From the NCBI GenBank assembly GCA_000934665.2, contig KZ538376.1:62001-87270 (forward strand): DNA of 25,270 nucleotides, read 5' to 3'. Positions 1,958 through 25,009 of the stretch are shown here, in pieces (the stretch's first letter is position 1; each line of letters begins with the position of its first letter). This DNA comes from Catajapyx aquilonaris (taxonomy: Eukaryota). The notes below the pieces were generated by a model, which was not told where the DNA came from, searched no databases, and saw nothing but the letters and a program-made list of their open reading frames with translations. The position numbers and the translations under genes are program-made.

Positions 1958-2045
1958 GAGGTCCCGGCTGGTTCGCCAGCGACGGTACTCTCTTCCTCGA
2001 GCGGTCCTCGGACCTGACTCGCATTTTTTGGTCGGACGGGGTGCT
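1958..2045 (+). ncRNA. candidate (probably degenerate) HDV-like self-cleaving ribozyme
   Basis: P1 GAGGTCC/GGTCCTC (6/7); J1/2 hairpin GCTGG-TTCG-CCAGC; P2 GGTACTC/GGGTGCT; P3 TCT/AGC (2/3); L3 TCCTCG; GG for P1.1; P4 ACC..GGT; J4/2 CGGA. All occur in the canonical order. Confidence 0.4.
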
Positions 2046-2246
2046 TGGGAGAATATCCCACCCCCGTCCCTGGGTTGGACCCGGCATTGCAGTACAGCTG
2101 GGGCCAGCCCTCCTCTCCCCCGCCCTTCTCACCCACCCCTACCTTGCAATCCCACACCTTCCTCTCCTACCCCCGGCTGCCAAGGCCCGACTCAGACAGA
2201 GCCATACAAGCTGGGTAACCCTTCCTACCAACCAACCAACCAACAA
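1958..2246 (+). mobile_element. short non-tRNA retroposon-like element with (CCAA)n tail and a candidate HDV-like ribozyme head
   Basis: GC-rich island in AT-rich DNA, ending ACCAACCAACCAACCAACAA (2227-2246). There are no A/B boxes, the 5' ~90 nt fit an HDV-like topology (see findings), and I found no TSD. Confidence 0.5.
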
Positions 2247-2960: not shown

Positions 2961-3578
2961 TACACACCATTATTTCGTGAGTTAACTTTTCGGTCATTTG
3001 GGGCAGAAGTTTGCAGATTTCGTCACCTTGATTTTAACTGAATGAAGTACTATCAGGGAGCATATACTACATGCGCAAACATTCGATTTTTGCGTCTCTC
3101 TGTTTATAGGGCGTTGCCAAGGCTGGCGGCCATTTTGAAGTGTGTGGCACGCCAACGAGGTCTAAATAGGGTACAGGCAGGCCGTCAAGGTCAGCGGGGG
3201 TCCGCCATCTTTGATGGTTTTGGCTGCCATGGCAATACACGGCAATAACAATTTACTTACCCATTCCAATATCGAATTCAAATTCGTGCGTGTTCTTGCC
3301 GTGTAGTTGCCATGGCAGCCAAAACCATCAAATATGGCGGACCCTATTTTTGCCTGTACCCTATTTATACCTCGTTGGCGTACCACACACTTCAAAATGG
3401 CCGCCAGCCTTGGCAACGCCCTATAAACAGAGAGACGCGAACATCAAAGGCGCCGACAGAAGTTTGCGCCTCTTATGTAGTATATGCTCCCTGGTACTAT
3501 CCTTTGGGTGTATGTTCCTGGGCTTAACTCAATTGTGACATTTTTGTGGGTTGTCCCATTATTGCATAACACCGTCCA
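2811..3578 (+). repeat. diverged direct duplication of a ~150-bp unit; second copy interrupted by the 3054-3493 MITE
   Basis: CTTTTCGGTCATT..TTTTAACTGAATGAAGTA..CATTTTTGTGGGTTG..CATAACACC.TCCA occurs at ~2811-2960 and again at ~2986-3053 plus 3501-3578. Confidence 0.8.
3054..3493. mobile_element. foldback MITE with ~200-bp TIRs and a 7-bp TSD (P/Galileo-like)
   Basis: Termini CAGGGAGCATATACTACAT...ATGTAGTATATGCTCCCTG. Arms ~3054-3250 and 3291-3493. TSD GTACTAT at 3047-3053 and 3494-3500. Confidence 0.9.
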
Positions 3579-4581
3579 GTTGAGGCGGCAGAATATGGCC
3601 TTTGATATCTGTTTATACAGGAAAATGTTAAAGGATCAAAAAGGGTTCTGTCCATTTGGGACATACCTGTATTAAGGATAATCAATAAAATTGTGTAACT
3701 AAAATATGTAATAAGCTACTTTGTCATGAGGACTTAGCTTTAAAGAGACGGAATACGCTTTATACATTAAGTAATAGAGCTATTATTTTCACCAGCACCA
3801 TGCCATCAAGTTCCCCCTTTTAAGCAGGTTGGCAAACCCATAATATATTGGTGTTTGAAAATTAAGCATGTGCTTTCAATCTCATCAATTTTTAGTCAGC
3901 TCATTACAGAAAATTCTATGACAAAATAATGCCGTGTTATTATGCGGCAGAATAATGCATCGCCTTCTTGTTTTATTTTTTATTTAATAGACAAGCTGTT
4001 CATTTTACTATGCTGGGATACATCCTAACTCTTCAACAGCACGCATGTACTTGTATAAGAAGTAGATTCCAAAAGTACCATACTGTTTTAATATTAACCC
4101 TGGAATTGAAACAATATTGCATCACTGCTGGTGTCGTTTTGTGATAATGTATGTGCCCAACCAAATGAATGTTTTAATCCAAACTATTAAATGGATTTCC
4201 ACATAATCTACCTAGTATTTAAAATTTGGTTTATTTCAGGTTTAGTAAGCTTACAAGCAAAGTAACTTTTCTTACCCTCGTGGATTTTGATAATTTTTAT
4301 AAATTAAATTCTGCTTGGCCTGTAGTGTTGGGAAAACATCACCTCAGCTGCTAAATTCCACGTTAGCAGGGTGAAAATCCAGCCTAAAGGCGATGTTCCG
4401 TAAGCCACAACACCAGCGTTCGGTCGCGAGGCGCTTTCCAGGCTGCCCGGTCACGCTCGTCCCGGCTGCCCTGTCGCGGTCGGCTTTCACCGCGTCTGCA
4501 GCTCTCTCCGGTGCCACGAAGGAGAAGGGTCATCTCGTACGCTTTGCAGTCGAAGGCGATTATAATAATGGAGAGCCAGGA

Positions 4582-5358
4582 CAGGGGGCATAATACTACA
4601 TAAGAGGCGCAAACATTCGATTCGCCTGTCTCTGGCAAAGAGTGTGTATTGTATAGCGCAGTGTGGGATTATTGTAGTGGCAATAAACTTCTGGCAAACC
4701 ATTTTGCTTTTCGTGATGGTATTTTATTCACAGGTGTTCTACATCGTGTTTTGTCGTCAATTTTTACACCAACGAGAGTATACGAGTGCTTATAGCTTAT
4801 TTCCAACCTCTGGGGCTTTTATTGCCATATTTCCGGCACTGCCTCGATCTACCGTATTGTACAATACAGTATCGAGTTTCGCTGTCGACTCGCCAGGTGG
4901 CAGGTCAGTCGATTGGCGACACGGTTGCTATGCTACCAGCTGTTTTTTCCACTCTTCCTAGTATAAGCTCTTTGGTCTCTGGTTGATGGGGCCAACGGTG
5001 GCGGCCATTTTGAAGAGATGCCAACGAGGTGTAAATAGGGTACAGGCAGGCCAAAGCTTCGCCATCTTTGATTGTTTTGGCGGCGGCCATGGCACTTCAC
5101 GGCAAGAACACGGGCGAATTTGAATATTTTTGCCGTACTTACGGAATTAATACGTAGAAAAGTGCATTAAAGGAGCTCATACGGCAAAAAGATTCAAATT
5201 CAGCCGCCAAAACCATCAAAGATGGCAGACCTTTGGCCTGCCTGTACCCTATTTACACCTCGTTGGCCTCTCTTCAAAATGGCCGCCACCGTTGGCCCCA
5301 TCAAACAGAGACAGGCGAATCGAATGTTATGGCCTCTTATGTAGTATTGTGCCCCCTG
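4582..5358. mobile_element. inner foldback homologous to the 3054-3493 MITE family
   Basis: Starts CAGGGGGCATAATACTACATAAGAGGCGCAAACATTCGATT and ends GTAGTATTGTGCCCCCTG. Shares GGCGGCCATTTTGAAG, GCCAACGAGGT.TAAATAGGGTACAGGCA and CGCCATCTTTGAT blocks with 3054-3493. Confidence 0.85.
4636..4974. mobile_element. nested 339-bp non-autonomous DNA transposon with an 8-bp TSD (P- or hAT-like)
   Basis: Short TIR CAAAGAG...CTCTTTG. TSD GTCTCTGG at 4628-4635 and 4975-4982. It is absent from the mirror arm, which shows the empty site. Confidence 0.85.
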
Positions 5359-5831
5359 TCCTGGCTCTCCATTATTATAATCGCCTTAGACTGCAAAGCG
5401 TGCGAGATGACCCTTCTCCTTAGTGGCACCGGAGAGAGCTGCAGACGCGGTGAAAGCCGACCGCGACCGGGCAGCCTGGAAAGCGCCTCGCGACCGAACG
5501 CTGGTGTTGTGGCTTACGGAACAGCGCCTTTAGGCTGGATTTTCACCCTGCTAACGTGGAATTTAGCAGCTGAGGTGATGTTTTCCCAACACTACAGGCC
5601 AAGCAGAATTTAATTTATAAAAATTATCAAAATCCACGAGGGTAAGAAAAGTTACTTTGCTTGTTAGGTAGGACAACCCTATACATGTAATGAATAAGTT
5701 CACATAGTGGTCAGTAACTCACCCGAAATGGTCAGATGTATAGTACGATTCTTATTTGAACAAAATATAATCAGTATATTTTTTTGCATGTGAAGCTCTA
5801 TTATGACCACAATGTAGGCACATGCAATATA

Positions 5832-5960
5832 CAGGGTGTTTAAAAACTGTGTACAAATTTTAATGGAAATAGGGAACACCAAGAAAACCTTTTTAATCGG
5901 TGAATGTAGCCTACCCTGTGTCCGCTGACGTCATCCTTCGGCGCTATAGGGCCGCTGGTA
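5832..5960 (+). mobile_element. probable truncated Tc1/mariner-type end (TA|CAGGGTGTTT)
   Basis: Same terminal motif as 11507 and 22559. No partner end was found and the right boundary is approximate. Confidence 0.4.
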
Positions 5961-8900
5961 TTCTATACCAGTTGGAAACCAACCCATCATACATAAAGTA
6001 GAACGCGAGAACTATGTAACTATGACATTATAGCTCTATTATTTTAGAAACAGCATAATATTTTTACAATATTAAAGAGCACCTAGTGGAATTCTCGCGC
6101 AGAATGTGCCTGTTCAGTACGCTGCACAAAGTGGTTTTTTGACTCTATTTTTCAATGCTCTTTGAATATTGGGTATACCGGTACTGAATGCACAGATGAC
6201 CACCTATTTCAAGCTACATGTGGCGAATCAATAAATCCATCCAAACTGACAAATGGTAACTGCCAACTTTGCAATGTTAAGAGCTCCAATTCACATAATA
6301 TGGATTTAGGAGAATATTTTACATTAACATACTAGGACATTTTTTTACGAAAGCAATTTTGGTTGCCATAAGGCGGTTTTGTTAAGTTGAAATTAAATTC
6401 ATTATTGTACCTAAACACTCTCCGATCACCGTGTGATTTATTATTACGGTAACCCAGATATGCCTATCGTCCTATAATTATGTAGGACACTTGTACAGTT
6501 GTTTGATTTTTAGTCATTATGTTAGTTCTTCATTTGCTAATTTAAAAATTTGAAAATTAACCAAAATCATTCAGGCACATCTGGGTTAAGCTTACATCCG
6601 TATCGATGAAAATGTCACGGACGCTCCCTCATCAAGTTGGTACTCCTGAGCCAACCAATGAAACTTCAAACGTACAACGGGACCCCGTCGGATTTCTGTC
6701 AGAATTCCCCATCAATAGACATCTCTTTCAGCATCAGTGTCAGCACCAATCAAGACTTGAGCCCCAGTTACAAAGAAATTGTCCCTCATTTCACATAACA
6801 TGTAATCTGTGAAGCGCACTGATTCCAAATCTGGCCCGACTTGCCACCGCCTTAATTGAAGTGTGACTCGCATATCAGATGAGAAGGCTCGTTTCTCCCC
6901 GTCCCTTTTGAGTAATTATACACTCCTTTCTCTCGCCATCTTCTTTGGCTGGAGTTTCTTAACTGGGGAAGTCTCCGAGAAACCGTTAATCATTTTCCGC
7001 CCCTGCGAAACTCGCGGTTTGTTTTCCCGAGCCCCTGTCATTGCGATTTGTTTCCTGACCCCTAGGGACGGATTCTGCGACCTTAATCGACCTATTCACC
7101 AGCCTCATTTCCCAGAAAACAAAATAAATAATGGTCTACGTGCTATTGGCACTTGGGATGGGTGTAACGTTGCGGAGGACATTCTTGTGCAAATAAATGA
7201 ACCCTTGATGAACGATGGGGCTCGTTATGAATGAGTGAGGCTGACAGTCGCTGGAGCATCTTCATATTTCATGCCGAGGGGATATTTACTGGGGCTTGTT
7301 CAAGTGCGTCGAACTCTTATTGACTTGGCGATTAGTCCAGTCGTGTCATGGAAGCGAATTATGAGATCCGGAATTGCATAATTGTGTTTGGGGAGGCTGT
7401 GCTGTGTACAGATGAAGTGTCCGTTCGATCATTATTAAATGGCGGTCAATGCTGTAATGGATAACATGGTTGGCAGGTAATTTTTTTGACGTATCTATTT
7501 ATCTGACGTAAAATTTGGCCGCTGTCAGCGTGCTTAAATGGATTTATGCTCATCAAATTTGGGGCTACGGAGCGAAATATTTGCTGTCCAAACTACTAGA
7601 AAAATATTTTGTTTAATGATATTAATATTGTTTCCTTACATTTCAGGCCCAGCTGGAGTCATGGAACGCAAGGTGGTCGACAATAATTAAGAGGTTGATG
7701 AGGGGCACAAGTTGACGCCATTTTAAATAGTTCGGCGGGGAATCTGCATGCGAATGCGAATCATGGGAGAAGGAGGCGAAGTTAAACTGGGCAACAGAGG
7801 ATGTCGCCTGTCCAAATCCAGATACACGATTCCTATCCCGCTGGAACCTCTCAAGGTAACGCTCCATTTATTATTAATCTCTCGAGCCGCAATTGCGTAT
7901 TCAGTAAGCGACATTTATATCCAGTCGTACATCAGATTGTCACGCATAAAATAACAATGATCCTGAACTTTACGACGCAAGAAAATATTACCAGTGTAAA
8001 TTGCATCAAATTTGCATGGCCTGGTGGCTCTGAGGGCAACCAAAGTACACACCGGGAATATCTATACAGTATTCTCAAATAAAGGTAGGCCTACTATTTT
8101 TGAAGCATTAAATGGTATCCTAGGCAATGTCAGCACCCACACTTAATAATCCGACCTTGGTGTCCTGGACTTGCAAATGCAATGATGGACCAGTCCCGCA
8201 GAGGAAAGGGTGACGGGCAGCAGCTTTTAGCAATTAACTCAAAGGGGACGGCTTTCATTCTCTTGGGGAACGAGAAAAAAAATCCCCCGGATTATGCACA
8301 AAGTTTGGGACTAGTCTAAACACTCTCTGGAAGCTTCCCCGGGTTCCTAGGTTTATATACGTCCTGCCCGCGGCCTACCGCAGACTTAGTTCCAGCCCGT
8401 CTAAATCGGACTGTGGTACACCACACGCTAATGGATTACAAATCAAATAGTCTGATTGTGACGTTGTTACGGCGAAGCTTGACAACATTGGTCTTTTGGG
8501 TGGAATCGGTGGGTTTCACGCTTGGTTTCACGGATTTGCCTCTGAAATAAGATGTCAAATCATTCCTAATCGAAGAATAGCTATACTGCAGCCATTGTCA
8601 CCCTATACTAATGGCATTCTGGTGAAGGAATAGTTTCAAGTCAAAATTAATTATTCACATTTAATGCCTACATGAGTTTTGCAATATCCTTTAGACTGCA
8701 ACGTTTGATGCATGGAATTTGAGCCAATAATTTCAAAGATTTGTCATTATTGTACAACCACTCTGGTAGGTTAAATTGCGCTTATCACATCGGACCTGTC
8801 TACTTCAGCCTTTAGGGGATATACGAGTATCAGAGCGGGCTTGGTCAGAGTGGCTGGATTGGGTACGTAGTGATAATGGCTGCTCCAGATTTGCCTACAG

Positions 8901-9017
8901 CTTCAATACATGTGGAATAGGCGGATCCGATGTGTTGTTGCACAATATTACCAGAACTCACTGATGCTTACTGGCCGTACGATGTTATACCGCCAGCAAC
9001 TGCTGCTGTTTTGAGCC

Positions 9018-9057
9018 ATTTTGATCTATTTTTACCTATTTTGATCTATTTTTACCT
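9018..9057 (+). repeat. perfect 20-bp tandem duplication
   Basis: ATTTTGATCTATTTTTACCT x2. Confidence 0.95.
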
Positions 9058-10053
9058 ATGACTTTTTGATGACAAGTGTCAATATACAGTATATTAAAGT
9101 GGCTATCGCAGTAGGCGTATTTGTCAGGACAATGAAGTTCTTTGCGCATGCGTACATTCTTGTTTGTCTGCCCATTATATCCTACCATATTTAGGACATG
9201 ATGGCAGAGGATTAAGAGGTGAACACTAATTTGGGCCAAGTAATAGCTAAGCGATGATCAAACGTGAGTGCTCTTTGAGAGTTTTAAAGGATTCCGAACT
9301 GATGTTTTCAATGTCTGATTGGCTCTTTCATAGATTGATGGGAGACGAAGATGTGTTTCATATCGAAAGTGCTATATATCTCTCTGTCATTTTTAGATGT
9401 CACTCTATAAAATCCACCTTATCGATTGTACGCCTTTCCTTGAGCCATCTTTAGAAAGCAAATCCTATAGGGCCTGCAAAGGTCAGACACACATATTTGG
9501 TAACTTAATAATTAAGACCTTCACTATAGTGCTCTGGAGCCTCGAGCTTTGTGTATTTCACTAAAAGCGATAACTTGCGATAACACCGAAAAACAACAAT
9601 ATATCACACTTTCTGGTTCCACGCAATCCACAAGCTTCTGTACTCTGTCCACTTAAAACAGTTGCAAGTGAGAGACGTTTAGGTCCATCTTAGTGGAGCC
9701 GGTAAATCCGGTGTGTAAAATGTGTCCTCGTCTTTTTCTCCGCGGATCTTAATGGTGTGCAGAAGACGTATCTGGTGGCCCCCTTCTAAGTGAATCTCCA
9801 CAAGTCGCCCTTAAATTCCGGCAGATAAAGGCGAGACACGGACGCTGGTTGGGAGAATCCCGGGTTCAAACGACAGAAACGGAAAACTTTCGTCTCTTTT
9901 TACAACTCCTGGTAATTGCTTCCTCAAGCCAAGTGCTGACAAATGCTGCTGCATGGGACCAAAAACCTGCACTGCTAACTACTATAGCTGGTGCACTGCA
10001 CATGCAGCTATATAACAAATGCCCGAGTCATTTCAGGAGTCAAAAGGTTCGTG

Positions 10054-10342
10054 TGTAACCTTTCACCGGCAAATATTTATCTTTCGCCGAGGATGGCACA
10101 GTTAGAAATGGCCGGTTTGTCAGAACCGTCTATTTGCTAACTGTTACAAATTTGTCCATCATAAAATTACGAGGTTTAAAACTGTCAGAGCCAATTTGCT
10201 ACCGAATACTATAAATACCCGCAAATCGAGGGAGAGGAATGTAATCGTACTTGCAGAGAGATGCAAGTATTTCAATAAAAATACTGTGTGTTTCAGAAGT
10301 CAAATAAGTTTCGTTTGTACAAAATGATGACCTGGTCGTCAT
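10054..10342 (+). mobile_element. probable 5' LTR plus a degenerate primer-binding site (Gypsy-like)
   Basis: TGTA...TACA termini (10054-10321), TATAAATA at 10210-10217 and AATAAA at 10274-10279. Next comes TGATGACCTGGTCGTCAT (10325-10342), 13/18 identical to the tRNA-Trp PBS TGGTGACCCCGACGTGAT. Confidence 0.5.
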
Positions 10343-11350
10343 GACGAGTCAGCATGTTGCCGGAGTGTGTAGGTGCAAATTAAAGCAGACATAAACACAT
10401 TTGCCACGTAAGCTCCACACTTTAGTCTTTTAGGGAGGGTGTCGAGTGCACGGTTCCAGATCCGTTGAGCTGTAGAGAAGCAGGAGCGAATTACGAGCTA
10501 CAGAAGAAAATAAATGAGCTTTTGTATAAGAGTGAAGAAGCCCAACATCTGCTCCGTAAAGCTATCCATCTCGATGACAAGCTGACATTAACAACCTTGT
10601 AAATGTACAGAAGCGGAACGAATGGTGAAACTTACTTATTTGACACTTGTTCCAGCCTTACAGGTATAGAGAAAAGGCTGCGGAGTCAGAATGCCAATTG
10701 ATTGCACGACTTACCCTGGGACGTGGCATTTTAGGGTGGTCAACAATATTGGGGTCGCCATCTGACCTTAAAGTCATGCTCATATTGATGAATCAATCTT
10801 CGCACCGCGGCTGAAAATTGGGAACACTTTTCTTCAAATTCCTAAAGCGACTTAACCTTGAGATAGTATGGAATATCAGATGCGTTTCGCTTTATAACTG
10901 TCTTGAATAATGGATCACAAAATAATATCCTAAGAGCGATTCTAATTTCGCTATGTAAAACGCTAGCTGCCAATTTAAGAGTATACGCGGAAGAGATTTA
11001 GAGCCAAGCAATAGTGAATTTTTCTGAAACTTGACAAGAAAAGTGACAACACTTTCTTTTTGCGAGAGCTTCATGATATCCGGTGACCTGATGTATATAG
11101 ATGCACTTAAATAATCCAATCTATGGATCTATTTTAGGCGGGTACAAATGGGAACATCGTTCAGACCAAGATTGTTTACGAGCATTCCCTCTATTAGAAA
11201 AGGTGGATTCCAAAGCGACCTTTATCAAAAAAATTAATTTGTCTATCCGGACCTGTTTCTAGCGAAGTAAAAACGGATCAATCTGTTTTATGCCACAGTA
11301 GTCGTATGCTAAACCATGATTTTATTTTAAAACATATACCTTCCTGATAA

Positions 11351-11501
11351 AGGTGCATTTACATGTGAGCGATTTTACGAGCGAAATTTTCGCCGAGGCT
11401 GAAATTAACAATCGATTTTCGCCTCAAAAATATTGGTTACTTGGGTTACTCACCCTCGGCGAAGATTTCGCTCGTCAAATCGCTCACATGTAAACGCACC
11501 T
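11351..11501. mobile_element. PIF/Harbinger-type (Tourist-like) MITE, 151 bp
   Basis: 48-bp TIRs AGGTGCRTTTACATGTGAGCGATTT... at 11351-11398 and 11454-11501 (3 mismatches). TAA TSD at 11348-11350 and 11502-11504. Confidence 0.88.
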
Positions 11502-11506
11502 TAATA

Positions 11507-12264
11507 CAGGGTGTTTCACTAGGTAGTCCCCCCAAAGAACCGGCAGCTGTATTTCTCTTCCTACTCTACCTAGAAATATGATGTTTGGTTTACATAAGTT
11601 ACCTTAGTTCATGGGAATGTAGCACCATTCAAAATAAATGCTGTACTTGAGCTTCAACGACCTCCACACGCACTCAAACACTACTCGACGCAACGCTCCT
11701 TATTATCGAAGGCCCTCCGCATCATATCAACATTAATAGTCAGGATTGATGCTCCAAGTGTTTTGGACCAATACAGTGACAGTATTGATGACCTCCTTTA
11801 AAGGAAGAAAAAAGTGAAAAAGTGAAGCACAGGCTGCTGGAATGACCAAAAAAGTCATTACGATTTTGTCACAAGAAACCGGGCATCCTGTTTCCACCTG
11901 TCAAAAGAGAAGCCAATGGGGATATTTGAAGAGTTGTGTTTACAACAGTGAGCCTGGACTTTAGAAGACTTGGAAACCAACATCAATGCAGCAATACGGA
12001 CCATTTATGAGGATATGCTGTGGAGAGCCTTCGATAATAAGGAGCGTCGCGTCGAGTGAGTATGGAGGTCGTTGAAGGTCAAGTACAGCATTAAGTGCTG
12101 TACTTGACCTTCAACGACCTTCGTACGCACAATAAATTTTATTGTGAATGGTGCTATATTCCCATGAAGTTAGGTAACTTTTAAACCAAACATCACGTTT
12201 TTAGGTAGAGTTGCAAGAAAAATATAGTATATTCTTTGAGGTGACTACCTAGTGAAACACCTTG
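11507..12264. mobile_element. Tc1/mariner-superfamily non-autonomous element with ~250-bp inverted arms
   Basis: TA|CAGGGTGTTTCACTAGGTAGTC...GACTACCTAGTGAAACACCTTG|TA. Arms ~11507-11752 and ~11988-12264. Confidence 0.9.
11917..12075 (+). pseudogene. C-terminal remnant of a Tc1/mariner-type transposase
   Basis: Translates as WGYLKSCVYNSEP/(frameshift)TLEDLETNINAAIRTIYEDMLWRAFDNKERRVE*. This matches the WGYLKxxVY..P.TLEEL...I..........R...C....GG C-terminus of DD37D/maT-like mariner transposases. Confidence 0.8.
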
Positions 12265-15200
12265 TATTAATAGCCATGTTATACCCAAAGTTTCCAAAAA
12301 GTTTCATTAATGAATCACATAGCAATAGACAAATTGCTTGGTGGCATTTATACCGGTACTAAAATGTAACTTTGCAATGAGAACCTTGGGATCTTTGTTT
12401 CAATGTTATGTGAGGCCAATTTCTCCTGAATTCCAACCCCACTTTCCACATAGCTCAGATGAGTAATAAAATTTTGATGTCGACTGTGTCTACACGACTA
12501 CTCATTTTTTTCCGGTCTGTTGGCTCCGTTTATAACCCTGACACTGCAAATGTTGTAGGAAGAGGAGCCGCGAAAAAAAACAGGTGATCTTTCATCCACA
12601 CAAGAAAACATGGCTTCCTTTTATTTGTTCCATCTGGCCAGCAGAATGTATGGGTGTGCTCTTACGCTAGCTTTTCTATATTTGGAACAGGGAGAGAAAC
12701 AAACGGCAAGAAGGAAGCTTCATGTTCAGGTTTGACTGTTACATTCCAAGCAGAGAGTTAAGCTTTCATGATTATCCATAATAATTTCCCTGCATAATAA
12801 ATAATAATTAATGATTAATGAAAATACCTTTCCTGTACTTATAATATAAATACCTGATCGACATGATCTTGACAATTTTGGTATGAATAGAAAATATGGA
12901 GTTTTTCAAATGTACTAATGTAGATTGTAAATTTTCGGCTGTAGATTGATCCAATGTTTTTACGAAAGGCTACAGCATAAAAGTTTAGTAAAAGTTCTAA
13001 ATTTATTGTTGCTGTTACGTGACTGCATTTTGGGCATGAGTAGAATAGATTGCCGGGGATGTGTTGTGCTTTTCTTCGGCTTATTTCCATAGAAAACTTT
13101 GGGTAGATTGTCAATGCAGAATACAATGTGCCTGCAACGACTTCATTTCTTATTCACCTCGCACATCACATCTTTCCTATATACATTCCAATGATGGCTT
13201 CCAAACATAGAATAAGTGATCAACCGTTCGATATGGTTGTCCACTCCTGCACAGTACACAATACAGTACAGTAACTCATGGGATGCCATCCGATATAGTA
13301 AATGAATTTCACAGAGGTTCTGGCAAGGCAAACACGATTTAATGGAAAACGTGACAAAATGGTGAGAGTGGAAGTGCCATTCAATATTCAGATGCAGGTT
13401 GCTGGTACCTGGTTAAAATTTTGCAAATATATATTGATACATAATTATGCAGTTTATTCTTTCACATTACCCTATAGGCTCGAGAGCAGTCTTGCTGCTT
13501 TTAGCATCTGCAGGGAACACCTATGGCCACAAAAAAGTCTCATATAGCACGCAGTATATGGCTGTTGCTGGGAATGTTCCCAGTCTTCCTTGGACTGGTT
13601 CCCAATTCCTCATTCCTTTTGACTGCGCCAATTCTGCGAAGCCTTCGATACAGCTAAATAAGACCAACTTCTATTTAGTGTTCGCATTTGCAGAGAGAGC
13701 TATATGAAAAAAAGTGTTCCGAGTTTCAAAGGAAAGCCTGCGGAATCGTCAAGATCTTGAACATTTTCTATAAGAAAGTGGATATGGAATTTCTCGATTT
13801 CTGCTGGTAGCGGCAGCCACACAGAATCGGTTTAGTAATGTCCTCGGAAATTTCAAAGATGTCACCGCAAGATATTTTACCTGACGGTGTAAAATCTAGT
13901 TGCTGGAATCACAGCCATTCCACTCAGAATTTCAGTTGCCCAGGTGAAAACTCATATTTTAAATGAGAAAAGCACCACAAGTGCCTGTCGCGAAAATGTT
14001 AAAAGTGATGTAACCGCAGCAGAAGATGTGGTATACACGTATGTACAGTATACAGTACATTTACTTTAACTTCTATGCGATAGTCAACAGCTTGGCAGTG
14101 GTTACAGATGGATTAATTGATTATCGTGGGCGTAAATTAAATCGATATCGAGACAAATATTTTTTACTCCAACAGGAAATTTTCATTACATCTTCTCGAA
14201 AGAGCTCGAAAGGATAATCTGCGGGGACTTCATAATCAAAGTTATTCAAGTTCTCCGCGGAAAATCGGAGATTCAATAATCGAATAATCATTATCGCCTG
14301 ACAGGGATATAGTCTGATTCCTTGATCTGGTTTTGCTTTTCCTGGGCTTCCACATCAGAGGCATTCAGCATCAGAAATGAAGAGGAAATGAAGTGAGACG
14401 AGGGTAAAAATGGATCAAACATGACAGCATCCGTTCACGTCTCTGGGAAACGCTCAATCCGGATTTTTTTTTGACGAGCATGCTGATGACAGGACGTTGG
14501 GATCGAATTCAAAGAGTGTTAAAAGGTGATAAGCACTATTTTTAATTATGCCTGTCTATGTGCGTTCCACATCCATCATCACTAAATGTTAATAATTCCA
14601 AACTATGTGCTAATTATTGGCTTTTTCCACCCTGGCTTCATCGCATTAGCATTGCAAACTATATTTGCAGCAAACCAAACATGGGGTGCTTTTTGGCCAA
14701 GGGGACCTTACCCCGGGCCAAAATCAGCACATGTTTCCCATGGAAAGTGCATTTTACATTGTCCTCCTTTTTCCTACTACTCATGGGGTTCAGAGCGTGC
14801 CATCGGATTTTTCTGTCTCAACAACTTCAGTTTTTTTGTTTGCTGAAAATGTCCGCTACACCTCCCGCATACAGTATACACCGCGTGTGATAAATTAATT
14901 GCAAAAACATACATATGGATATTTTATGCCGCTGGAAACTTGTGTATGGAAACCTGAGCGTAGAATGAAAATGACGCAAAGTTTTAAAAAAAATACAATA
15001 CAGGTCTGTAGGCTACCAGACGTTTCTGACAGCAGGATGAGTATCTAATGCAAAATCCACATTGGTTTTTAAGTTTATGAATACACTATATTCTGGCCAG
15101 CATCAGTTAAAATGATCAATATTCAGTTGGAAATAGTATTTTATATAGTTTCCATTGCGTCAGATGGATTTTTACAAGCATAGTCAATTATTCGTTATTG

Positions 15201-15932
15201 CACTAGAGGCTTGTAATTCGATCTGTTCTAATGTTTTTGAATTGCAAATTTCCAGGATGAAAATAACGGTCGGGCATTAGTAGTGATTAGATTTTCAGGT
15301 TTTTGATGCATAACCACCTGCAATTACTTATACTCCAATAAATTTTGACTGTTAACATTTGACATAATGTATCTGGTTTGATTTTCCATCTGTGTATCTG
15401 CCCGGTGCTTGCGAATATTGTTGATTTTTCAAATGCTTCTCCCAATCCTATGATGCTACAGTGCAATATTTTTATAGATACATAATATATTATTTCGTCG
15501 AATACCCTTGTCATGGTCACATCATATCACGGCAGAAATAACATGTTTACATTTGGCAGTATGGAAACATTGAATCACTGACAGTGAGAGGGGAAGGGCT
15601 GTAATAATAATATTAATTTATTATTAATATTTTGACAAACATACAGTACATTTATTATTCCCGCATATGCACATTGTTCACAATGCATACTGATGTTGAA
15701 AATACCATTTCTTTTTTTTTTCTAAAATTTCTTTTTTCAAAAATGGACCAGTTTGGCCGGACCTCCCGTGTGGTGGAAATGCTCCCTCACATATGCGTTC
15801 CGCATCATGGTTGGAAGAAAAAAAGTCTATTTTTGGATTTTTGCTTTTCACTAGGTCCAGTTCCTGTGGGAATTCATAATCGAAGCCTAACTCGGTGGAC
15901 CAAGTGGCGATAAAGTTCCGGGCGGGTTCGGT

Positions 15933-16074
15933 GGGGGGGGNNNNNNNNNNNNNNNNNNNNNNNNNNNNNNNNNNNNNNNNNNNNNNNNNNNNNNNNNNNN
16001 NNNNNNNNNNNNNNNNNNNNNNNNNNNNNNNNNNNNNNNNNNNNNNNNNNNNNNNNNNNNNGGGGGGGGGGGGG
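15933..16074. other. assembly gap (121 N) flanked by poly-G
   Basis: N run 15941-16061 between G tracts. Confidence 0.95.
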
Positions 16075-16448
16075 CTTCATTAGCACGCAGGGCGAGAGTC
16101 GCCCACTTTCTATGGTCATATATTATACATCTGCCCATGACCAAATGACCAGAAATCTCTGTTTTTTTGGAAAGATTCAAGCACAGCCTACTGCGGCGTA
16201 CTGTACCCCCACGTTTCATGCAGTATGCACTGTAATATTGCAGAACAGACTGTACCTAACCGCAGATGCCTCGTATTACCAGGCTATATATCAGCAGGAT
16301 GGGAGCATTGGTTTAAAATTTATGAAGCAATTCTATAAAAAAAGCTGACAATTGGGATTTTGTCACTGAAATGTCCATATATTGTAATCTTTACCAAATA
16401 GGTTGTACTGGATGTGACATAATGATACGACATTCACAGAAAACAAAC

Positions 16449-16723
16449 GAAGCAGTTTGGAGGAGGGGATATGGTGTCCGACTGCTAATCGGGAGGTCCT
16501 GGGATCAAAGCCCGGGGCCGGCAACTCTGACCGTGGTTTACTGTGGTTTCCCACGGTCCTTCCAGGAAAATTCCGGAGTTGCTTCCGTAATTAATAGGCC
16601 ACAGCCGCCTCCTTCCGTCCCTATCCTATCCCAAAAAGCACAGTAAAACGAAAGCAAAGAGTTCCAGGCAAAACAAAGTTCCCCCCTAAAGAGCCGATGT
16701 CTGATAACGGGGTATGAATTATG

Positions 16724-16752
<29 letters not shown>
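16449..16752 (+). mobile_element. tRNA-derived SINE, family B, copy 1 (decayed A/B boxes, (ATT)n tail)
   Basis: Collinear and highly similar to 24732-25009. (ATT)n tail. TSD ATTCACAGAAAA at 16432-16443 and 16753-16764. Confidence 0.92.
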
Positions 16753-16755
<3 letters not shown>

Positions 16756-19700
16756 CACAGAAAATATATTGAGAAAATTTATAGCGTTTGTACGGGTATG
16801 GATATGTGTGCATGTGCAAGTGCTTCAGAAGAATAATTATGTAGTACAGCAGGAAACTTCCGATGAAATTCACAAAAGCATGAAGCTTTCAATAATGGCA
16901 AATGAGAAGAGAGTGTGAAATACGTATAAACGAAGCGTACATCAACATGAGGTAGATGGAGATATTTCGAATAATTGAATAAAATTATTTTAATGATGGA
17001 TTGTTGTTTCTAAGTTTAAATGCTGAAAGAGCATAACATCGTCAAAGTTCGCCTCAAATACACGTAGTCGCCACAATACAGCTCTTATGCAGCGAGATAA
17101 ATAGTATATTGCCTACTGTACTAATAATTGCAGCATCCACTTGTATTACTTGTAAAAGAAATTGGCCAATGAACCTCGAGCAAGGTGAAAGCTAAGGAAC
17201 AAAAACCTTCACCTTGCTAGAGCTGATATAGATACAGCGCCACGTTTCCTTTGTTTGAAACTTATATTATGTATAGGCTTGTATAGTATCATACTGTACA
17301 TTACGCAGTATGAGAAACTCCAGAATTCTGCATTACTGCATACGTGCAGTGCATATGCTCATACGCTATGTGGCATCAAGCATGACATCGAAAAATGACT
17401 ACAATGCAAATCTGCATAAAATGACATTTCCCCAACAATAGACATTTTTCTGCATCAAGAATGCATGTTGCGGTGAATTTTAATGCCTGCAACTGATCAT
17501 AGCAAAAGCGCATTGGTATCTCACCCCATCGACGCACTCATTTGGCTAAACCAATGTGTCTCTGTGATCACGAGTTTAATATGAAAATAGGCCCTTTATT
17601 ATGTACAATTTAGAACATGCTCCATGCGGCATTACTAATGCAGGGCAATAATTTAGAGTAATTAGCCGGTTTACATAACTGTAGTCTGGTCCGATTGACC
17701 GCACTCCCTTTGGCTCAGTTAATGCAAAGCTCGTGTACCAGGTAGAAAGCCTGTGATTTGTTATTCCAGGATTGGGATCGGCTGCCAAAGAGTTCCGACA
17801 CTCTTTGTGTGCTGGCCACTTCACTCTCGCAGGGGGTTGACGCAATATTCCCTGCCACATTGTGACTAACATAATAAACGCTCTTTCATCTCCACATCCA
17901 AAGTCTATCGACTCGGTTTGCTTGCCAGAGCTAATCGCGCCAAATATTGCACCGGTCTGACCTTTCGGAAACGTTCCAGATACTCATCACTGAGGGTTCT
18001 ATTATGTGATCGGGAATAATCGCAAATAGGGTCTGCTCTACTTATCACTTGTACGTACGCGACCTGACGTGCAGTGTTAGCCTGACGCCAATATATCGGT
18101 GATAGCTGGCGATAGACGCAAAAGAAAGGGCTGGTGCTTATTTGCAACCACGAATAGTCGCCAGTAGTTTGATGTGAGGTCGTAAACCAAGTCCGGCAAT
18201 AAAACGAAACCCATCTGTGACCCACATTGGATAGAACAAAATAAGGAATGTTTCAGACGACCCCTGGCATTGTCGAGCATTGCGTGAGTCTAGTAATATT
18301 CCCACCCTGTACTAGGTAAAAATTATTATACTTGCTGCTCTTTTGAATGCAAATTGGTCCACCTCATGGAGCTGGCGAACATTATACAGCATGAAAAATC
18401 CAGAAAAATCTTCGTGGAAATTTAATTCCAACCTTCAATCTGAATGTCTTATTACTGTCACCGACTTCTCTTTTCTTCCCAGCTACTTTTTTTTTTTAAA
18501 AAATTCGGCCCTTCTATTGTTGAGTCTGGGGACAGCTCATTAGACGTTCAACATATACGTGCTCGGGAGCCGTTCTTTTGTGGACTGAGTAAATCTACTG
18601 CAGCCCACGTGCTCATTCGTGCCTCACTTTTTTCGCGAAGGATGGTGAGGGAGGTGGGGTGTGGAAAAAGGCAGAAAAGGTGAACCAGCTCAGCCTGGCT
18701 CTGAATTGCAACAGCTGGATCGATGCTTTCATCTGGGAGGGTTTTTTGAACACCTAGCTCCTCCTTTTTTTTGCTTTTTGCATGCATGTATGGCACTGCC
18801 AAAAACTTCACTTCTGATGTTGACAAAGGACACCTCGCAAAAAAGGGGGGGCGATAAAGCGCGCCTCAGTGAGTACAGGCCAGTGGATATGAAATCGGTT
18901 CGTAGTTGAGTTTTTATGTTGACTGTACCCCGGCGTGAGTGGATTTGAAAATATTTGATGAATAAGTGGTATTGTTGGCTCGAAGCTAGAAATAGCCTCT
19001 GTCAGATACAGTGTGCTTTAGTGTGGCATAGCAAAATGTAGAGCGGCTGTGAGGTTAAAGTAGAACTAATTGTTTAGCGGAAAATGAGGCAATCTGCATG
19101 TAGGCACTGTGCCACATCCTGACAACAACAGACCAAATCTATACTACAGGGTGGAGCACGGTCTGACCTCTGTTTTTAGCAGGTTATTACATCTGCGATT
19201 TTTCAGACTGACCATTATGTTGCAGGGGCTTATAGTCTACATCGTTTTTTTCCCTTTGACGTTACAATCGATAGAAAAAAATCACATTTTCGGACCCTAT
19301 AGCATTTCTTTTTTTTTGTGACAGGATCATTATCGGAATTTTCCCCCACCTAATGGGACGGATGTTGGACTCACCCCATCTCCCCATCAGTATCCCAGAG
19401 GAAATTCCGGGTTGTTTACCCTAGGAGACAGAAGGCCCTTTGGGCTACTCCTTCAGCCATGTTTGCTCTCATCGCCTGAGCTGCAGGACGTCCACAAGGC
19501 GCCCCCAAAACCATTCCAATGTCAGGGTGGAGGGACGTTGGGGACACCCCCTCGTTATGTGGTCTATCTTCCTCTAATGAAACCTGCTTACTCACCGACT
19601 CCACTTGACTCAACTACAGATTACGTCAGCTACAGATGTCACGTATGCAGTGCGATCTGATCCTGAATGCTTAGCACGATTATCAATTAATTGTTAGATG

Positions 19701-22219
19701 CACTATTATGAAATTATGAAGTGTTAACATTACGCAGACTGCATATGCTTTTTAAAAACACGTCGTTTAAAGTCTTCTAAGTTTTTTAAATTAGTTTAAA
19801 ACTATTTACACTATATTATTCCCTAGCATGAGAATCAAGAATAAAGAGGGCTGAGTGCTAAGCACTCTTTAAACATCTACACTGATTAAATTCTTGCCAC
19901 GAACAGCTCAGTCATCTGAATGAATATTCAGCATTAGAAAGGCGCATTTCATCAGGAACGGAGATACGGTACTACATGAGGGTCGTGTAGTATAGGGCTC
20001 TAAGGGCAGCATATTTGGTTCTAACTGGATTGCAACTTCTTAACATAATTATTATACTGTGCCTCGCCGGGTCGAAATAGATTTTCGAAATATTACATTT
20101 GGGCACCCGTTTGTACAGTCATACTTTTAAAAAATGTGCTTTTAAAATTTTGATGTCAGAGAATGTATAGAAATATTCTGTCAGATGTGACGTGCAATTT
20201 CCTTTTCCTGCTTATTTTCCTAGCTATAACTTATAAGATGTTTATGTTTGTGCGTATTTTCCTTCTCAAAAACAATTATTGAAAATTTATTCTCTTATGA
20301 AGACTAAAAATGTGTCTTATAATATTTGTATCCTGCTTAAAACTACTCCCATTGTACCCTTCAGTATCTTTAGCACGTATTGGCCTATGCAATTTGCAGC
20401 TTGAAAGAGAGGATCCCAGAATGATATACCCGGATGGTGACACTCAAAATGATGCACAACTGGCACCATTGAAAATATAAGATATATCCTTTTTTTAAGC
20501 AGTATAATTACTTCCGCACAAGTCCTATGTTACTTCATAGTATAGGTGCCTCGTGCCGGAAATGCCATCGTTGTTGAAGCATGCACTAAAGCACGCGTTG
20601 TTAGTGAATACTTGATGAATTGGGCTAAATCTGTTCTGAAAGCGTGGAAATGACCCATACACTCCATGTGAATGGCTTATTTCCGAGCTATCCCCAAACA
20701 AAGCATTCACAGTGAGTGCTGATTCAGAACAAAATCTGGTTGCAGCTCATTAATCAGCCTCAAAGTGATGAATACGTGCGATTTCTATCAGTGACGGGCA
20801 ATAGGAGATTATGCTTAATTGGGACCGGGATTGAAGACACGTATGGCATGAATGCAGATCCAATCAAGGAGCTTGACAACGCAATTACCCTCCAAATCCT
20901 AACAAAAATGGGCGGCCTTATTAAATTGAACACCAGCAACTCGACAGCACCCGATTATTGTCTCAGGAAAACGAGTCCCCGCCATGTTGTCACAATGGGG
21001 CACACTTTGGATGGGAGAAAACTAATTATCGGGGCGTCCCGATAGAAGGTTCTTAGCTCGCGAAAGGTATTCGAGTTGCAGTAGGCGGGATTTTCACCCA
21101 ACAAAGTGGCACTTCCGGGCTTTGATAATTGCTGGTTCATTGCCCATTCTGGGGATTGCCAGAAAATAAACTGCGTCCTCAACAACACTCCGATTCGCAT
21201 CGCCTGTTACGGTTGCAAGGCACTTAGTCCCCAAAGCGAGTGGTTTTCTTAACCCTTCTGAGACCGATTCGTTGCCTTGATATAGACCGGCTTAGAGTGA
21301 ACATAGCTGCTAACTTTGTCTTCGGGTTCTGTAATTGTTTTGGTATGCACTTGGGAGATCACCACCTCACAGTCCTATTGTCAAATGTGCTCTCAGCCAC
21401 AGCATCTGTATTAAATTATTTTATATCCAACAATAACAATCCCAATAATTGCAGAAACCTTTCAAATCATAGGAAAAGTTAGGGGTGGAAATGCCACGAG
21501 AGCTCTGAAATTATTGTTAATGTGGTATTAAAACCTTCTTAAAAGCACTTTCCGAAAAGCTGAAATGAGATAATAACACGTTTTCAGCTGTTAGGCGATG
21601 AGTAGGTGCACTTTGGACATATCGCAACGGTCCCTCCAGAAAACATATAAAAGAATCATTTAATTTCGCAAAGATGAACAATAAATAGCGGAGGTTCATT
21701 ATGTATTTATCTGCTATGCAGAAGTGAAACTCGCATAGATAGTTCCTATCGAGCAAAATATCATCGTAGGGGACGTACTTTTGAAAAGTAATTGGCTTTT
21801 ATGCAAGCCGATGCAAGCAGTAAGAGGTTCGTAATTTATCAGATTTTCACCCACAATTCCACTTCACGGGAGCAAAACCCATATATTCCAGCTTATGACT
21901 TCGTAGTCAAATTCACTCCTGGTTAGCGATTCGCAAAAGTATGAAATCGCGTAGTTTGGTAGACCATGCATACTAAAATTGGGCAGTCCTGGCAAGTGAG
22001 TGCGACTGCCCCGATTCTATACCAGTAGAAAGCGATTAAGCAGAGCGTTACCGAGGCCTCCTCCCACATAAAACACAACAAGTACATCTGGCATGAATGG
22101 ACGATTCCATCACCCCCGCTCCTGCCCATTCCTCCCTGCCTCCCTCACACAGGGTTCCGTCCGTCCAAGCTAACCTAAAGGACACCGCAGCCGTTCCGGA
22201 AATGGAGCCGTCCGGACCC

Positions 22220-22355
22220 CGGATCCTAATAGTCCCTGCTGAGACTCACTCGTAATTCGGCCCATCTTCTCTGCCAGGATATATCCCGCCCACTACAACT
22301 TCCAACTGGTCAACATTACTTTACCACTTCCTATTTCTTAAATGGTTTCTAACCA
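22220..22355 (-). pseudogene. possible degraded RTE-clade LINE ORF C-terminal fragment
   Basis: With frameshifts, the minus strand reads VRNHLRNR...KL*WAGYI..REDG.RIT, resembling the RTE motif VRNxxIRxR...KLRWAGHxxRxxDxR. Confidence 0.38.
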
Positions 22356-22558
22356 AGAAAGTTAGCTCCATAACTATAGGTGGCGTCTAGGTGGTAGACG
22401 CGTAGACGCCTTTGGTATTGGTTATTACTGAGTAGCACTGGTCACAAAACTGTTACATGATCAAGATCCGGTTTTAGGATGTCCAGCTTAGAGGTCACTG
22501 TGGAAGCTATGGCATCCATAAGTAATGACTGTGAACAGTTAATTGATTTTAAATTACA

Positions 22559-22886
22559 CAGGGTGTTTAAACTTTTTTGTCCGAAGTTATCGGAAAATTG
22601 CACGTAGCTGCTACTTTGTAAGCAGTGACTTGCAAACGGTGATTTTTCGGGGGTACGGGGAATATTCCATGCGAATCGAAGGTTAAAGTGGCATATACGT
22701 GCTGCCGGCTGAAAATTGAGGGTCAAGCCTGGAAAAAAGAGGGCCACACATGCCATGGGATGTGACCCTCTTTTTCCCCATTCCCCATTCCTCCTACAAA
22801 TCACCGGTTGCAAGTCACTGCTTACAAAGTAGCAGCTACGTGCAATTTTCCGATAACTGTTCGGACTAAAAAGTTGAAACACCTTA
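22559..22886. mobile_element. Tc1/mariner-type MITE with ~87-bp TIRs
   Basis: CAGGGTGTTTAAACTTTTT.GTCCGAA..GTTATCGGAAAATTGCACGTAGCTGCTACTTTGTAAGCAGTGACTTGCAA at 22559-22645 is mirrored at 22798-22886. Flanks are CA and TA (a degenerate TA TSD). Confidence 0.88.
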
Positions 22887-24728
22887 TATTACTGGGCGAA
22901 CTAGAAAGAGAGAAATAAAGTGTCCAAAGAACAGGTTTTGAAACCGTACATTCAGTCACTTTCATGATCATATGACACACTGGCAGTATAACTTTTAGCG
23001 TGAACCTCGCTTTTTGTTAGATTTCATTGTTATCCGAACTGCGGCACCAGTTTTTTTCAACATTCTTTGAGCAATGTTACAAAACTCTTCTAGTTCCAAC
23101 ATCCTGTCACAAAATATTTACTCTATGTCGCCTTAAAATAACTCCTTTTACGACCACGTTTGTATCGACTTTCACAACCTCGTCGCTTAGACCGCTTTTT
23201 GCGCCTCGTTTTTTGTGGACTCACAAAAAGAATAGTAAGCCCAGTTTGTGCTGCATCGCGGACGAAAGAATCTCACGAAAACTGCACAGATAAGAGTTGC
23301 GTATAGTTCGTATCTTCTGCTCTCCACCACCACTAACACAAAAAAGACACGAGGCCTTGTTCGAAAGAGGGCTGCAGAATTGCATACCCTTCGCGAAGGG
23401 TTGTGGAGATATAGGCGAGATTTTGATCCGTCGTCGCATCGTAATTGTCCAGCAGGGAGGACGTGAAAATCGCCTTGGTTCCCGGATCCAACTGGCAAAT
23501 AATCCGGGGCGCTGTTAGGTCAGACAAGCATATAGAAAATATTGGGGGAGGAAGTAGGGGACATGCTCGAAGTTGGGGATCCGGACTGTTCGTTGCAGGC
23601 CGTTGCGTTTTCCACGCCAGGGAGCAGCGACAGGAAGGTCGCCTACGAGATGCTTACGTATTTCTTCTCAGAATGTGCGTATTCGACAAACGGACTTCTT
23701 TCCCCCACCCTCACCCCCCCTATTATCCAGGGCATTTACACACACAAAAAAACTGATTTAAATGCTGACGTTGATCAGTGGAACTACCTTCCTGTTGCCG
23801 CTAGAACAAGCACAAGACTGATTGTTAGCAACAAGATGTCAACTTCTCCCTCGTTTGGTTGGTAGACTTTCAGTCGGAAAATGCGTCTCTGGCAGTATTA
23901 CGTTGCACTGGAGAAGGAATACTGTCGTTCCTGGCCTATAACAGTGTATATCAGCATGCAATAGGCCACCCTGAGGGGAGAGGATTTCTTCACCTAGGAG
24001 GTGCCTCAAGTTAAGAACAAAGATCTTGCGTCCGTGAGTGAATGAGCTGGTATACAAAATTGTAAATAATTTTCATTCGCTCGATCATTAAATAACGGTT
24101 TTAACCGAACACACTCCTGAACATTAGGGAAAATGACATGGGTTAATTTTTATGTGCAATCGGCTCACTTCCACGACTCTCAAAATCCATAGGTACTGCT
24201 GACGTGAATTCACAATTGAGACCAGCAGGAGACATTTGGAAGCTGCTATTTGACATGGCGATGTCGGATGAAAACTACTTCATTAAAACTAATATACGGT
24301 ATCCCAGCTTCGTTTATACCTCCCAGCCAACCTTTTTCCATCATGCAGGCATCCCAGTAACCAATCTGTAATTCGAATTGCAATATTGATATTGCAATAT
24401 TTTTGTACTTCGTACCTTCCGAAATACCCGCATGACTGCTGTATACTGTCTTATGCTCGTAACAGGCCTTTCACGGAATATATAATGTTTTTTTTTTTAA
24501 TTTCCCTTCAACCTTTTGCATGTAAGTATGTTCATTTAGAAGTCATGATAAACGCTTCTAATAATGTTACAGAATTCCAAAGTTTCCGAACTCTACAGCA
24601 CAGGTATATCAGTGTAGATTGCGAAAAGTGTCGTTACCAACTTGAATAACAAACGTACTCTTTACGGTACCTATTATGTAGCTCTGGCCATGGCTTGCTA
24701 TACAGATGCGTGATTATAATGACTTAAT

Positions 24729-25009
24729 ACCGAAGCAGTTTGGCATAGTGGATAAGGCGTCCGACTGCTAATCGGGAGGTCGTGGGTTCGAATCCCGGGG
24801 CCGGCAACTCTGACCGTGGTTTCTGTGGTTTCCCACGGTCCTTCCAGGAAAATTCCGGAGTTGCTTCCGTAATTAATAGGCCACAGCCGCTTCCTCCCGT
24901 CCCTATCCTATCCCAAAAAGCGCAGTAAAATGAAAGCAAAGAGTTCCAGGCAAAACAAAAACTTCCCCCTAAGGAGCCGATAGGCTGATAACGGGGTATG
25001 AATTATTAT
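24729..25009 (+). mobile_element. tRNA-derived SINE, family B, copy 2 (intact Pol III boxes)
   Basis: A box TGGCATAGTGG, anticodon arm TCCGA-CTGCTAA-TCGGG, B box GGTTCGAATCC. Perfect 16-bp TSD ATTATAATGACTTAAT at 24713-24728 and 25010-25025. Confidence 0.95.

Follow-up and report, generated by a model that had tools for sequence, protein, structure and literature searches.

A probable composite retroposon of Catajapyx aquilonaris with a U2 snRNA-like 3′ domain, a (CCAA)n tail, and a drawable HDV-like ribozyme pattern

Known relatives of spliceosomal RNA within mobile DNA include the SINEU families (SINEU-1, -2, and -3), U2-derived SINEs of crocodilians with 5′ additions that arose by template switch (Kojima 2015, PMC4494074). 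According to the excerpted text of that paper, some SINEU copies share 5′ extensions, and the families owe their mobility to Tx1-Mar LINEs, Mariner-N4 being the preferred target; their mode of transcription is given there as unknown, and the excerpts report none outside crocodilians. Ribozyme-headed LINEs and non-autonomous elements form a second group of relevant systems (as outlined in excerpts of PMC6765202 and PMC3185411). The L1Tc ribozyme in particular, L1TcRz, is described in the consulted part of PMC3185411 as tolerating weak helices, as remaining active with a P1.1 of a single pair and, in one construct, with P2 missing, and as being inhibited by downstream sequence. In the literature searched, with Repbase and Dfam lying outside that search, snRNA-derived SINEs were treated only by Kojima (2015) and in papers citing that study, and we found no U2-derived SINE outside crocodilians; a (CCAA)-tailed non-LTR SINE was likewise absent from the literature searched.

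Here, we analyzed a 25,270-nt stretch of DNA from Catajapyx aquilonaris (GCA_000934665.2, KZ538376.1:62,001–87,270, forward strand), referred to below as the window and numbered from its first base. An initial annotation, made from the sequence, had proposed that a GC-rich island at 1958–2246 is a short retroposon headed by a self-cleaving HDV-like ribozyme. Our analysis retains the retroposon and favors a different account of its 5′ part: positions 1958–2246 (1946–2246 for the window copy) are probably one member of a young, dispersed family of non-LTR retroposons that are non-autonomous and ~289 bp long. Such a composite would join a head, a U2 3′ domain, and a C-rich body to a terminal (CCAA)n tail, with the HDV-like pattern a coincidence.

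The best reading of the element is a SINEU-like composite retroposon. As in SINEU, at least as the excerpts of PMC4494074 present it, U2 sequence is joined to non-snRNA sequence in a short dispersed retroposon without a recognizable promoter, some copies share 5′ extensions, and the origin is attributed to a LINE whose reverse transcriptase copied U2 RNA or switched to it as a template. Two SINEU features, U1/U2 sequence and dispersal in many copies of <500 bp, are thus present here, and two others, an snRNA as the 5′ head and a poly(A) tail, are not. Compared with the same excerpts, this element retains only the 3′ domain of U2, preceded by a 65-nt head without detectable likeness to U2, whereas the head of SINEU is the snRNA itself; the tail is (CCAA)n instead of poly(A); and the consensus lacks the oligo-T that most SINEU have. 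The excerpted text also describes snRNA–LINE chimeric retrocopies, which resemble the element in carrying an snRNA, up to its mature 3′ end, fused upstream of retroposon sequence; unlike those one-off chimeras, the present element is amplified as a unit, to hundreds of times the depth of its flanks (PMC4494074). With NARTc, which carries L1TcRz, and the R2-derived SIDEs, it shares the character of a short, noncoding derivative, here putatively LINE-mobilized, whose 5′ end is precise and which lacks a Pol III head (excerpts of PMC3185411 and PMC3414825), as well as an HDV-like pattern that can be drawn from base 1. In those elements, as far as the excerpts go, the ribozyme is the 5′ end of the LINE itself and cleavage is proven, whereas the fold considered here is suboptimal and unrepaired, and its key C is variable.

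To characterize the repeat family, contigs of three DNA runs (X1–X3) were aligned to positions 1700–2500 at ≥80% likeness, giving 205, 231, and 291 aligned contigs. Four DNA runs of a single sample contain the locus, and X1–X3 therefore count as one observation, possibly from the very sample that yielded the assembly of the window. Contigs pile up over 1958–2243 at about 150–650-fold the level of the flank: the summed contig depth is 4,200–24,000 across 1943–2239, 31–38 across 2267–2500, and ≤147 upstream of 1943, a quantity that is not a copy number and is read here only as “hundreds of times the flank.” About half of the aligned pieces are ≥99% identical to the window, which indicates that the family is young. 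Among the breaks listed, the commonest at the 5′ end is G1958, where 6–7 contigs per run pass into long unrelated flanks; a second lies at 1946 (3 contigs per run among those listed, with unrelated sequence before it), and one further contig carries the bases of about 1950–1961 ahead of the element. The listed 3′ breaks at 2243, 2244, and 2246 comprise 10–11 contigs per run, and the sequence behind them is unrelated (agreement 0.43–0.60). The depth, the fixed ends, and the unrelated flanks together establish a 289-bp unit that is highly repeated and dispersed. They bear out the proposal of a short, multicopy, non-autonomous retroposon with a (CCAA)n tail, its expected multiplicity appearing as a depth hundreds of times that of the flank over 1958–2243 in three runs of one sample. 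The accompanying prediction that copies begin at G1958 holds for the commonest listed break (6–7 contigs per run) and fails for the class that breaks at 1946 (3 contigs per run). MITE, Helitron, and satellite readings were rejected, since the element does not end in inverted repeats and other copies lie in unrelated flanks.

Within the window itself, neither BLAST at word size 7 nor a repeat finder detected a second copy. A pattern built on the head had no match in metagenome, genome, and viral contig collections, the stem IV pattern of the element had none in viral contigs, and a tail-proximal 21-mer had none in genome and viral contigs. Run X5, which bears the same species label, yielded no aligned contig, a result that says nothing on expression. 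In each of two runs, a single contig passes from 2049 to 2141 and skips 91 bases; the junction marks a deletion variant in which most of the U2 stems are missing.

The element, which lies on the forward strand, has a G+C content of 62% in a window of 42%. The window copy and a minority of other copies begin with a 12-nt extension (1946–1957); on inspection of the sequence, the 7-mer at 1946–1952 is repeated at 1956–1962. The 65-nt head (1958–2022) is predicted to fold into two hairpins, 1958–1992 (inner stem 1967–1971/1976–1980) and 1998–2021. It is followed by an Sm-site-like U-run (A, six T, GG) at 2023–2031, an equivalent of U2 stem-loop III at 2034–2069, an equivalent of U2 stem-loop IV with the conserved loop ATTGCAGTAC at 2072–2110, and the end of the U2-like stretch at 2111–2117. 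A C-rich body (2118–2226) with a predicted 3′ stem-loop (2172–2178/2209–2215) leads into the microsatellite tail at 2227–2244, a (CCAA)n repeat of period 4 and 4.5 copies that agrees with the initial annotation and forms the 3′ end of the family. The window has 14 open frames of ≥110 aa, and no credible Pfam family was found in the 13 that lie outside the element.

The assignment of the central part to U2 is based on covariance-model searches and on alignment to real U2 genes. At gathering scores, Rfam has no match anywhere in the window. At E ≤ 10 over 1850–2350, U2 (RF00004) is the sole family of 4227 with E < 0.1, scoring 27.8 bits (E = 0.001) at 1988–2117. This score lies below the gathering value of 46 bits because the match lacks 78 of the 192 model positions: 9 and 6 bases stand in for model stretches of 20 and 58 positions. 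The aligned parts comprise the Sm site (2023–2031), stem-loop III (2034–2069), and stem-loop IV (2072–2110), and the alignment continues to the last model position, 192, at 2117. For comparison, metagenome contigs were scanned for an Sm word and a loop word at U2 spacing and then filtered for a branch-site word; the scan gave at least 118 loci, the filter kept 11 of those listed, and 8 of the 11 are U2 genes by their 5′ end, the rest being chance matches. Stem-loop IV, in both sequence and pairs, is common to the element and these eight genes in the alignment. When 2023–2117 was aligned to the 3′ half of a real metagenome U2 gene, the score was 58, compared with 20.7 ± 4.2 for shuffled sequences, none of 2000 of which scored as high. 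The head behaves otherwise: 1958–2022 scores 14 against the first 100 nt of a real U2, and shuffles give 15.3 ± 2.7, which is not significant. A derivation of the head from the U2 5′ end, in which global MAFFT places the 1967–1980 hairpin near U2 stem-loop I, was considered and rejected, since the local alignment is not significant against shuffles. Based on these comparisons, 2023–2117 is, as judged by sequence likeness, the 3′ domain of U2 snRNA, that is, the Sm site and stem-loops III and IV up to the mature 3′ end, with the U2 5′ half absent from the element. This domain, which the initial annotation had overlooked, accounts for the Sm-type U-run and two of the GC-rich hairpins.

A contig that matches only 1996–2112 occurs once in X1 and once in X3 (352 and 329 nt; depth 9–12), with 17 differences, no gaps, and 85% identity, and is flanked on either side by unrelated sequence. 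This contig may represent a U2 gene of the host or a different repeat that carries U2 sequence, in which case the U2-derived part of the element would start near 1996, inside the proposed L3 of the ribozyme pattern.

The C-rich body may hold a further trace of the same RNA. Positions 2164–2226 weakly resemble 2055–2114, a segment that runs from the 3′ strand of U2 stem III through stem IV to the end of U2 (score 32, shuffles 21.1 ± 3.2, 11 of 2000 as high), and in the predicted fold the stems CCCGGC/GCTGGG and CCCGGCT/AGCTGGG recur in the element. The body at 2164–2226 may thus be an older, decayed second U2 piece, although its C-rich composition may inflate the score. Rfam searches of the body and tail (2100–2260) returned only two matches, with E values of 4.4 and 8.7, which we take as noise.

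Sequence variation within the family was read from positions that differ from the window in ≥5% of the depth in at least one run. Six such positions lie in the element (1958–2246); three further ones, at 1848, 1856, and 1864, lie outside it, within an upstream inverted repeat. The consensus differs from the window copy only at 2027, 2099, 2122, and 2187. T2027C (99% of depth) interrupts the T6 run of the Sm-like site, and T2099C (96–99% of depth) converts a G-U into a G-C pair in stem IV (2080–2085/2097–2102), so that the consensus repairs a U2 stem; G2122A and C2187T account for 90–96% and 98–100% of depth. The two minority variants are C2033T, at 22%, 30%, and 31% of depth in the three runs (all 5′ ends pooled), and C1995A, at 3–11% of depth in 8–10 contigs. 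Of the 12 CpG sites in 1958–2117, the one containing C2033 is alone in being listed, the other 11 varying in <5% of depth, which suggests that T2033 is a subfamily marker and not scattered CpG decay, and hence that sources carrying T kept on amplifying.

These features bear on whether the copies are mobile DNA at all. They could be conceived as dispersed, functional genes for a variant U2-like or spliced-leader-like snRNA: like U2 genes (RF00004), they have an Sm-type site between hairpins, stem-loop III, and stem-loop IV with its conserved loop, both stem-loops being intact, and the consensus improves stem IV. The comparison with U2 genes breaks down in that the 5′ functional half, which is active in splicing, is absent, with 78 of 192 model positions missing and a score of 27.8 bits in place of the 46 required for gathering, and in that a body and tail follow. 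Moreover, the consensus interrupts the Sm U-run, and beyond the U2 part the copies have another 130 bases and the (CCAA)n tail in common before passing into unrelated flanks, which is the behavior of a retroposon and not of a gene driven by an upstream promoter. We consider such snRNA genes extremely improbable.

Returning to the retroposon reading, the element is not a standard SINE: it has no tRNA, 5S, or 7SL head. ARAGORN finds no tRNA in the window, and Rfam at E ≤ 10 matches neither tRNA, 5S, nor 7SL in 1850–2350 or in 1940–2050. The initial annotation had stated that A and B boxes are lacking. The A box is indeed absent from the element at ≤3 mismatches; as for the B box, two B-box-like sites are present (1970 and 2073, with 2 mismatches each). 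If the element were an ordinary Pol III SINE whose internal promoter is cryptic, with G1958 as the Pol III start, it could make use of the first of these words (1970–1980). This reading would also accord with the variant at 2027: the sole run of at least four T (2024–2029) is broken by C2027 in 99% of the family depth, so that the consensus, read against the window copy, contains no internal Pol III terminator, as would fit selection for read-through. In a type 2 Pol III promoter, the B box does not usually lie 13 nt from the 5′ end. The word at 1970 does lie only 13 nt from it, and together with the missing A box and the failure of ARAGORN and Rfam to recognize a tRNA, 5S, or 7SL sequence, this layout makes a Pol III SINE unlikely.

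HDV-like ribozymes have a G-U wobble closing P1 at the cleavage site and an essential catalytic C in J4/2. On the ribozyme reading, the first 88 nt of the element would form an HDV-like double pseudoknot that frees it from longer host transcripts by cleavage 5′ of G1958, such that no promoter of its own would be needed. Every base that the initial annotation assigned to the pattern is present. P1 (1958–1964/2003–2009) has six of its seven pairs, with a T1962 × T2005 mismatch, and the pair at its base, G1958–C2009, is Watson–Crick and not G-U. All five pairs of the J1/2 hairpin (1967–1980) form; P2 (1984–1990/2039–2045) has seven pairs, three of them G-U; P3 has two of three pairs in the annotated register and a perfect 3 bp in an alternative one (1990–1992/1999–2001); and P4 (ACC/GGT) has 3 bp. 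L3 is TCCTCG at 1994–1999, the GG of P1.1 lies at 2010–2011, and the CGGA of J4/2 lies at 2033–2036, with C2033 as the proposed catalytic base and C1995 as one base of P1.1. The order of the helices is that of the nested HDV double pseudoknot, and all of them can be drawn. The caveats attached to the original proposal are also accurate, namely the U-U mismatch in P1, the mismatch in P3, the 6-nt L3, and a competing pairing, AGGTCC/GGACCT, which forms six of six pairs.

P1, J1/2, the 5′ strand of P2, P3/L3, the 3′ strand of P1, P1.1, and the 5′ strand of P4 all fall within the head (1958–2022), the loop of P4 is the Sm site, and stem-loop III holds, on its 5′ side, J4/2 (from 2034) and the 3′ strand of P2.

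To gauge how often such a pattern arises by chance, we used a descriptor that allows at most one mismatch each in P1 and P3, at most three G-U pairs in P2, a 3-bp P4, an L3 of 6–8 nt, and a J4/2 of C-N-R-A plus 0–2 nt. This descriptor was fitted after the fact and is just loose enough for the candidate, which is lost once the mismatch in either P1 or P3 is disallowed. On both strands of the window it matches two sites, 1958(+) and an unrelated one at 6831(−). The latter lies in ordinary AT-rich sequence and has no P1 mismatch and no G-U pair in P2; we take it as a chance match that shows the permissiveness of the pattern. In 100 dinucleotide shuffles of the window, the mean is 0.58 matches, with at least one in 31 of the 100, and a match somewhere in 25 kb is therefore unsurprising. 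Searches with such a loose HDV-like descriptor should accordingly expect a chance match about once per two windows of 25 kb. Of 3000 shuffles of the 289-nt element, 2 contain a match and none has it at base 1, a test in which shuffling also destroys the native hairpins that ease the drawing of alternative pairings.

The covariance models did not recover the pattern. Where the initial annotation had pointed to HDV-like models as a check, no Rfam ribozyme family matched, either at gathering score in the window or at E ≤ 10 in 1850–2350 and 1940–2050, and in 1940–2050 alone no Rfam family of any kind reached E ≤ 10. This miss is weak evidence against a ribozyme, since such models miss HDV-like ribozymes that have diverged, and E ≤ 10, spread over 4227 families, corresponds to ~0.002 per family.

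Predicted energetics also weigh against the ribozyme model. P1, the J1/2 hairpin, P3, and P4 together contribute −14.2 kcal/mol, to which P2, as a free duplex, adds −6.8, so that the HDV-like fold reaches at best about −21 kcal/mol, compared with a minimum free energy (MFE) of −33.0 for the 88-nt RNA. The MFE falls to −50.6 kcal/mol once stem-loop III is present, and in the ensemble of 1958–2117, the pair probabilities of P1 and P2 are ≤0.001. Stem-loop III alone is worth −24.1 kcal/mol, and its formation ties up the 3′ strand of P2 together with J4/2 from 2034 on, the larger part of that joint. In these calculations, which treat secondary structure only and leave tertiary energy outside the model, the proposed fold is predicted to be at least 12 kcal/mol worse than its alternatives.

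Several observations nevertheless favor self-cleavage. The helices and motifs can all be drawn in the right order; L3 reads UCCUCG, with CC opposite GG, and J4/2 starts with C-N-R-A; P3 is perfect in its alternative register; the A box is absent and no promoter is recognizable; and the loose descriptor is rare in element shuffles. Ribozyme-headed LINEs and non-autonomous elements are established, and L1TcRz tolerates a reduced P1.1 and, in one construct, a missing P2 (both according to the excerpts cited above). Cleavage is predicted exactly where the commonest listed 5′ end of the family lies (6–7 contigs per run). That the family begins exactly at the start of a drawable P1, a position matched in none of the 3000 element shuffles, speaks against coincidence.

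The evidence on the other side comes from the model searches, the pairings, the family, and the fold. Besides the lack of an Rfam ribozyme match, even in 1940–2050 alone, and the helix energies that fall short of either MFE, G1958 pairs with C where a U is expected, P1 contains a U × U, P3 has two of three pairs, P2 three G-U pairs, and P4 only 3 bp. The initial annotation had named a consensus without improved pairings as a refuting outcome, and this outcome is observed: the family shows no change at the mismatch in P1 or P3, and the consensus mends a U2 stem and neither flaw of the HDV-like fold. C2033, the proposed catalytic base, is T in 22–31% of depth, and C1995 is A in 3–11%. Finally, bases upstream of 1958 are shared by at least three contigs per run, one more contig, and the window copy. 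Given the missing Rfam match, the unrepaired mismatches, the variable C2033, the uncompetitive fold, and the upstream bases that are kept, the HDV-like ribozyme as originally proposed is not upheld, and we judge it quite improbable. The HDV-like pattern is most likely coincidental, built partly from inherited U2 sequence.

A more specific version of the same idea would treat the head and the captured U2 together as a candidate degenerate HDV-like ribozyme, in which the cleavage site is closed by G-C and J4/2 and P2 draw on the 5′ side of U2 stem-loop III. It would be active only before stem-loop III folds and would free the element at G1958. We give this version little credence. If true, it would mean that a self-cleaving ribozyme was assembled from a spliceosomal RNA fragment, and it would explain the 5′ ends of promoter-less snRNA-derived SINEs, a question that the excerpted text of the SINEU paper leaves open (PMC4494074). 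Even then, a ribozyme head would be a variant of the already-known ribozyme-headed non-autonomous elements.

For the SINEU-like composite, which we prefer, we propose the following origin. A LINE reverse transcriptase would copy the element, recognizing its 3′ stem-loop and microsatellite tail. The U2 part may have been captured by a template switch of the LINE enzyme onto the mature 3′ end of U2 snRNA, as has been proposed for crocodilian SINEU, and the head would be a later addition. When a reverse transcriptase reaches the 5′ end of its template and then moves to the 3′ end of U2, the product carries, upstream of the retroposon sequence, a piece of U2 that stops at the mature 3′ end, as in the element. 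A small number of master copies would be transcribed, each from a promoter within it or next to it, and the discrete 5′ classes (1958, and 1946 with its 12 shared bases) would then be transcript starts and not ribozyme products. Several points count against the preferred reading: no partner LINE was found, and, in agreement with a caveat of the initial annotation, there is no target-site duplication (TSD), no word of ≥6 bases being common to both flanks of the element. The picture of the family also comes from three runs of one sample, the U2 score stays below the gathering value, and the main 5′ end coincides exactly with the start of a drawable P1.

If correct, the composite reading extends snRNA-derived SINEs beyond the single clade and the single tail type represented in the literature searched and supports repeated capture of U2 RNA by LINE reverse transcriptases. 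For annotation of the Catajapyx aquilonaris genome, it would imply that matches to the Sm site and the U2 loop are mostly retroposon copies.

The window holds other repeats. A near-perfect long inverted repeat at 1685–1902 lies 55 bp upstream of the element; its inner arms (1716–1781/1807–1872) are 100% complementary and its outer arms (1685–1716/1871–1902) 94%, its contig depth is only about 2–4 times that of the flank, and it looks like a MITE or foldback element. A 31-base G run with one N at 1135–1165 and a 121-base N gap at 15941–16061 are likely assembly artifacts. Nested inverted repeats occur at 3082–3448 and 4250–5667, with arms of 210 nt (98%), 175 nt (95%), and 110 nt (95%) and with pieces common to both, and these are probably copies of one foldback-type DNA element. 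A tRNA-derived SINE is present in two copies, at 16448–16755 and 24731–25009, which are 89–96% identical. The copy at 24731 has clear A-box and B-box words, with no tRNA called by ARAGORN, and the copy at 16448 ends in (TTA)8.7 at 16730–16755; the genome thus also contains conventional Pol III SINEs, with a different tail.
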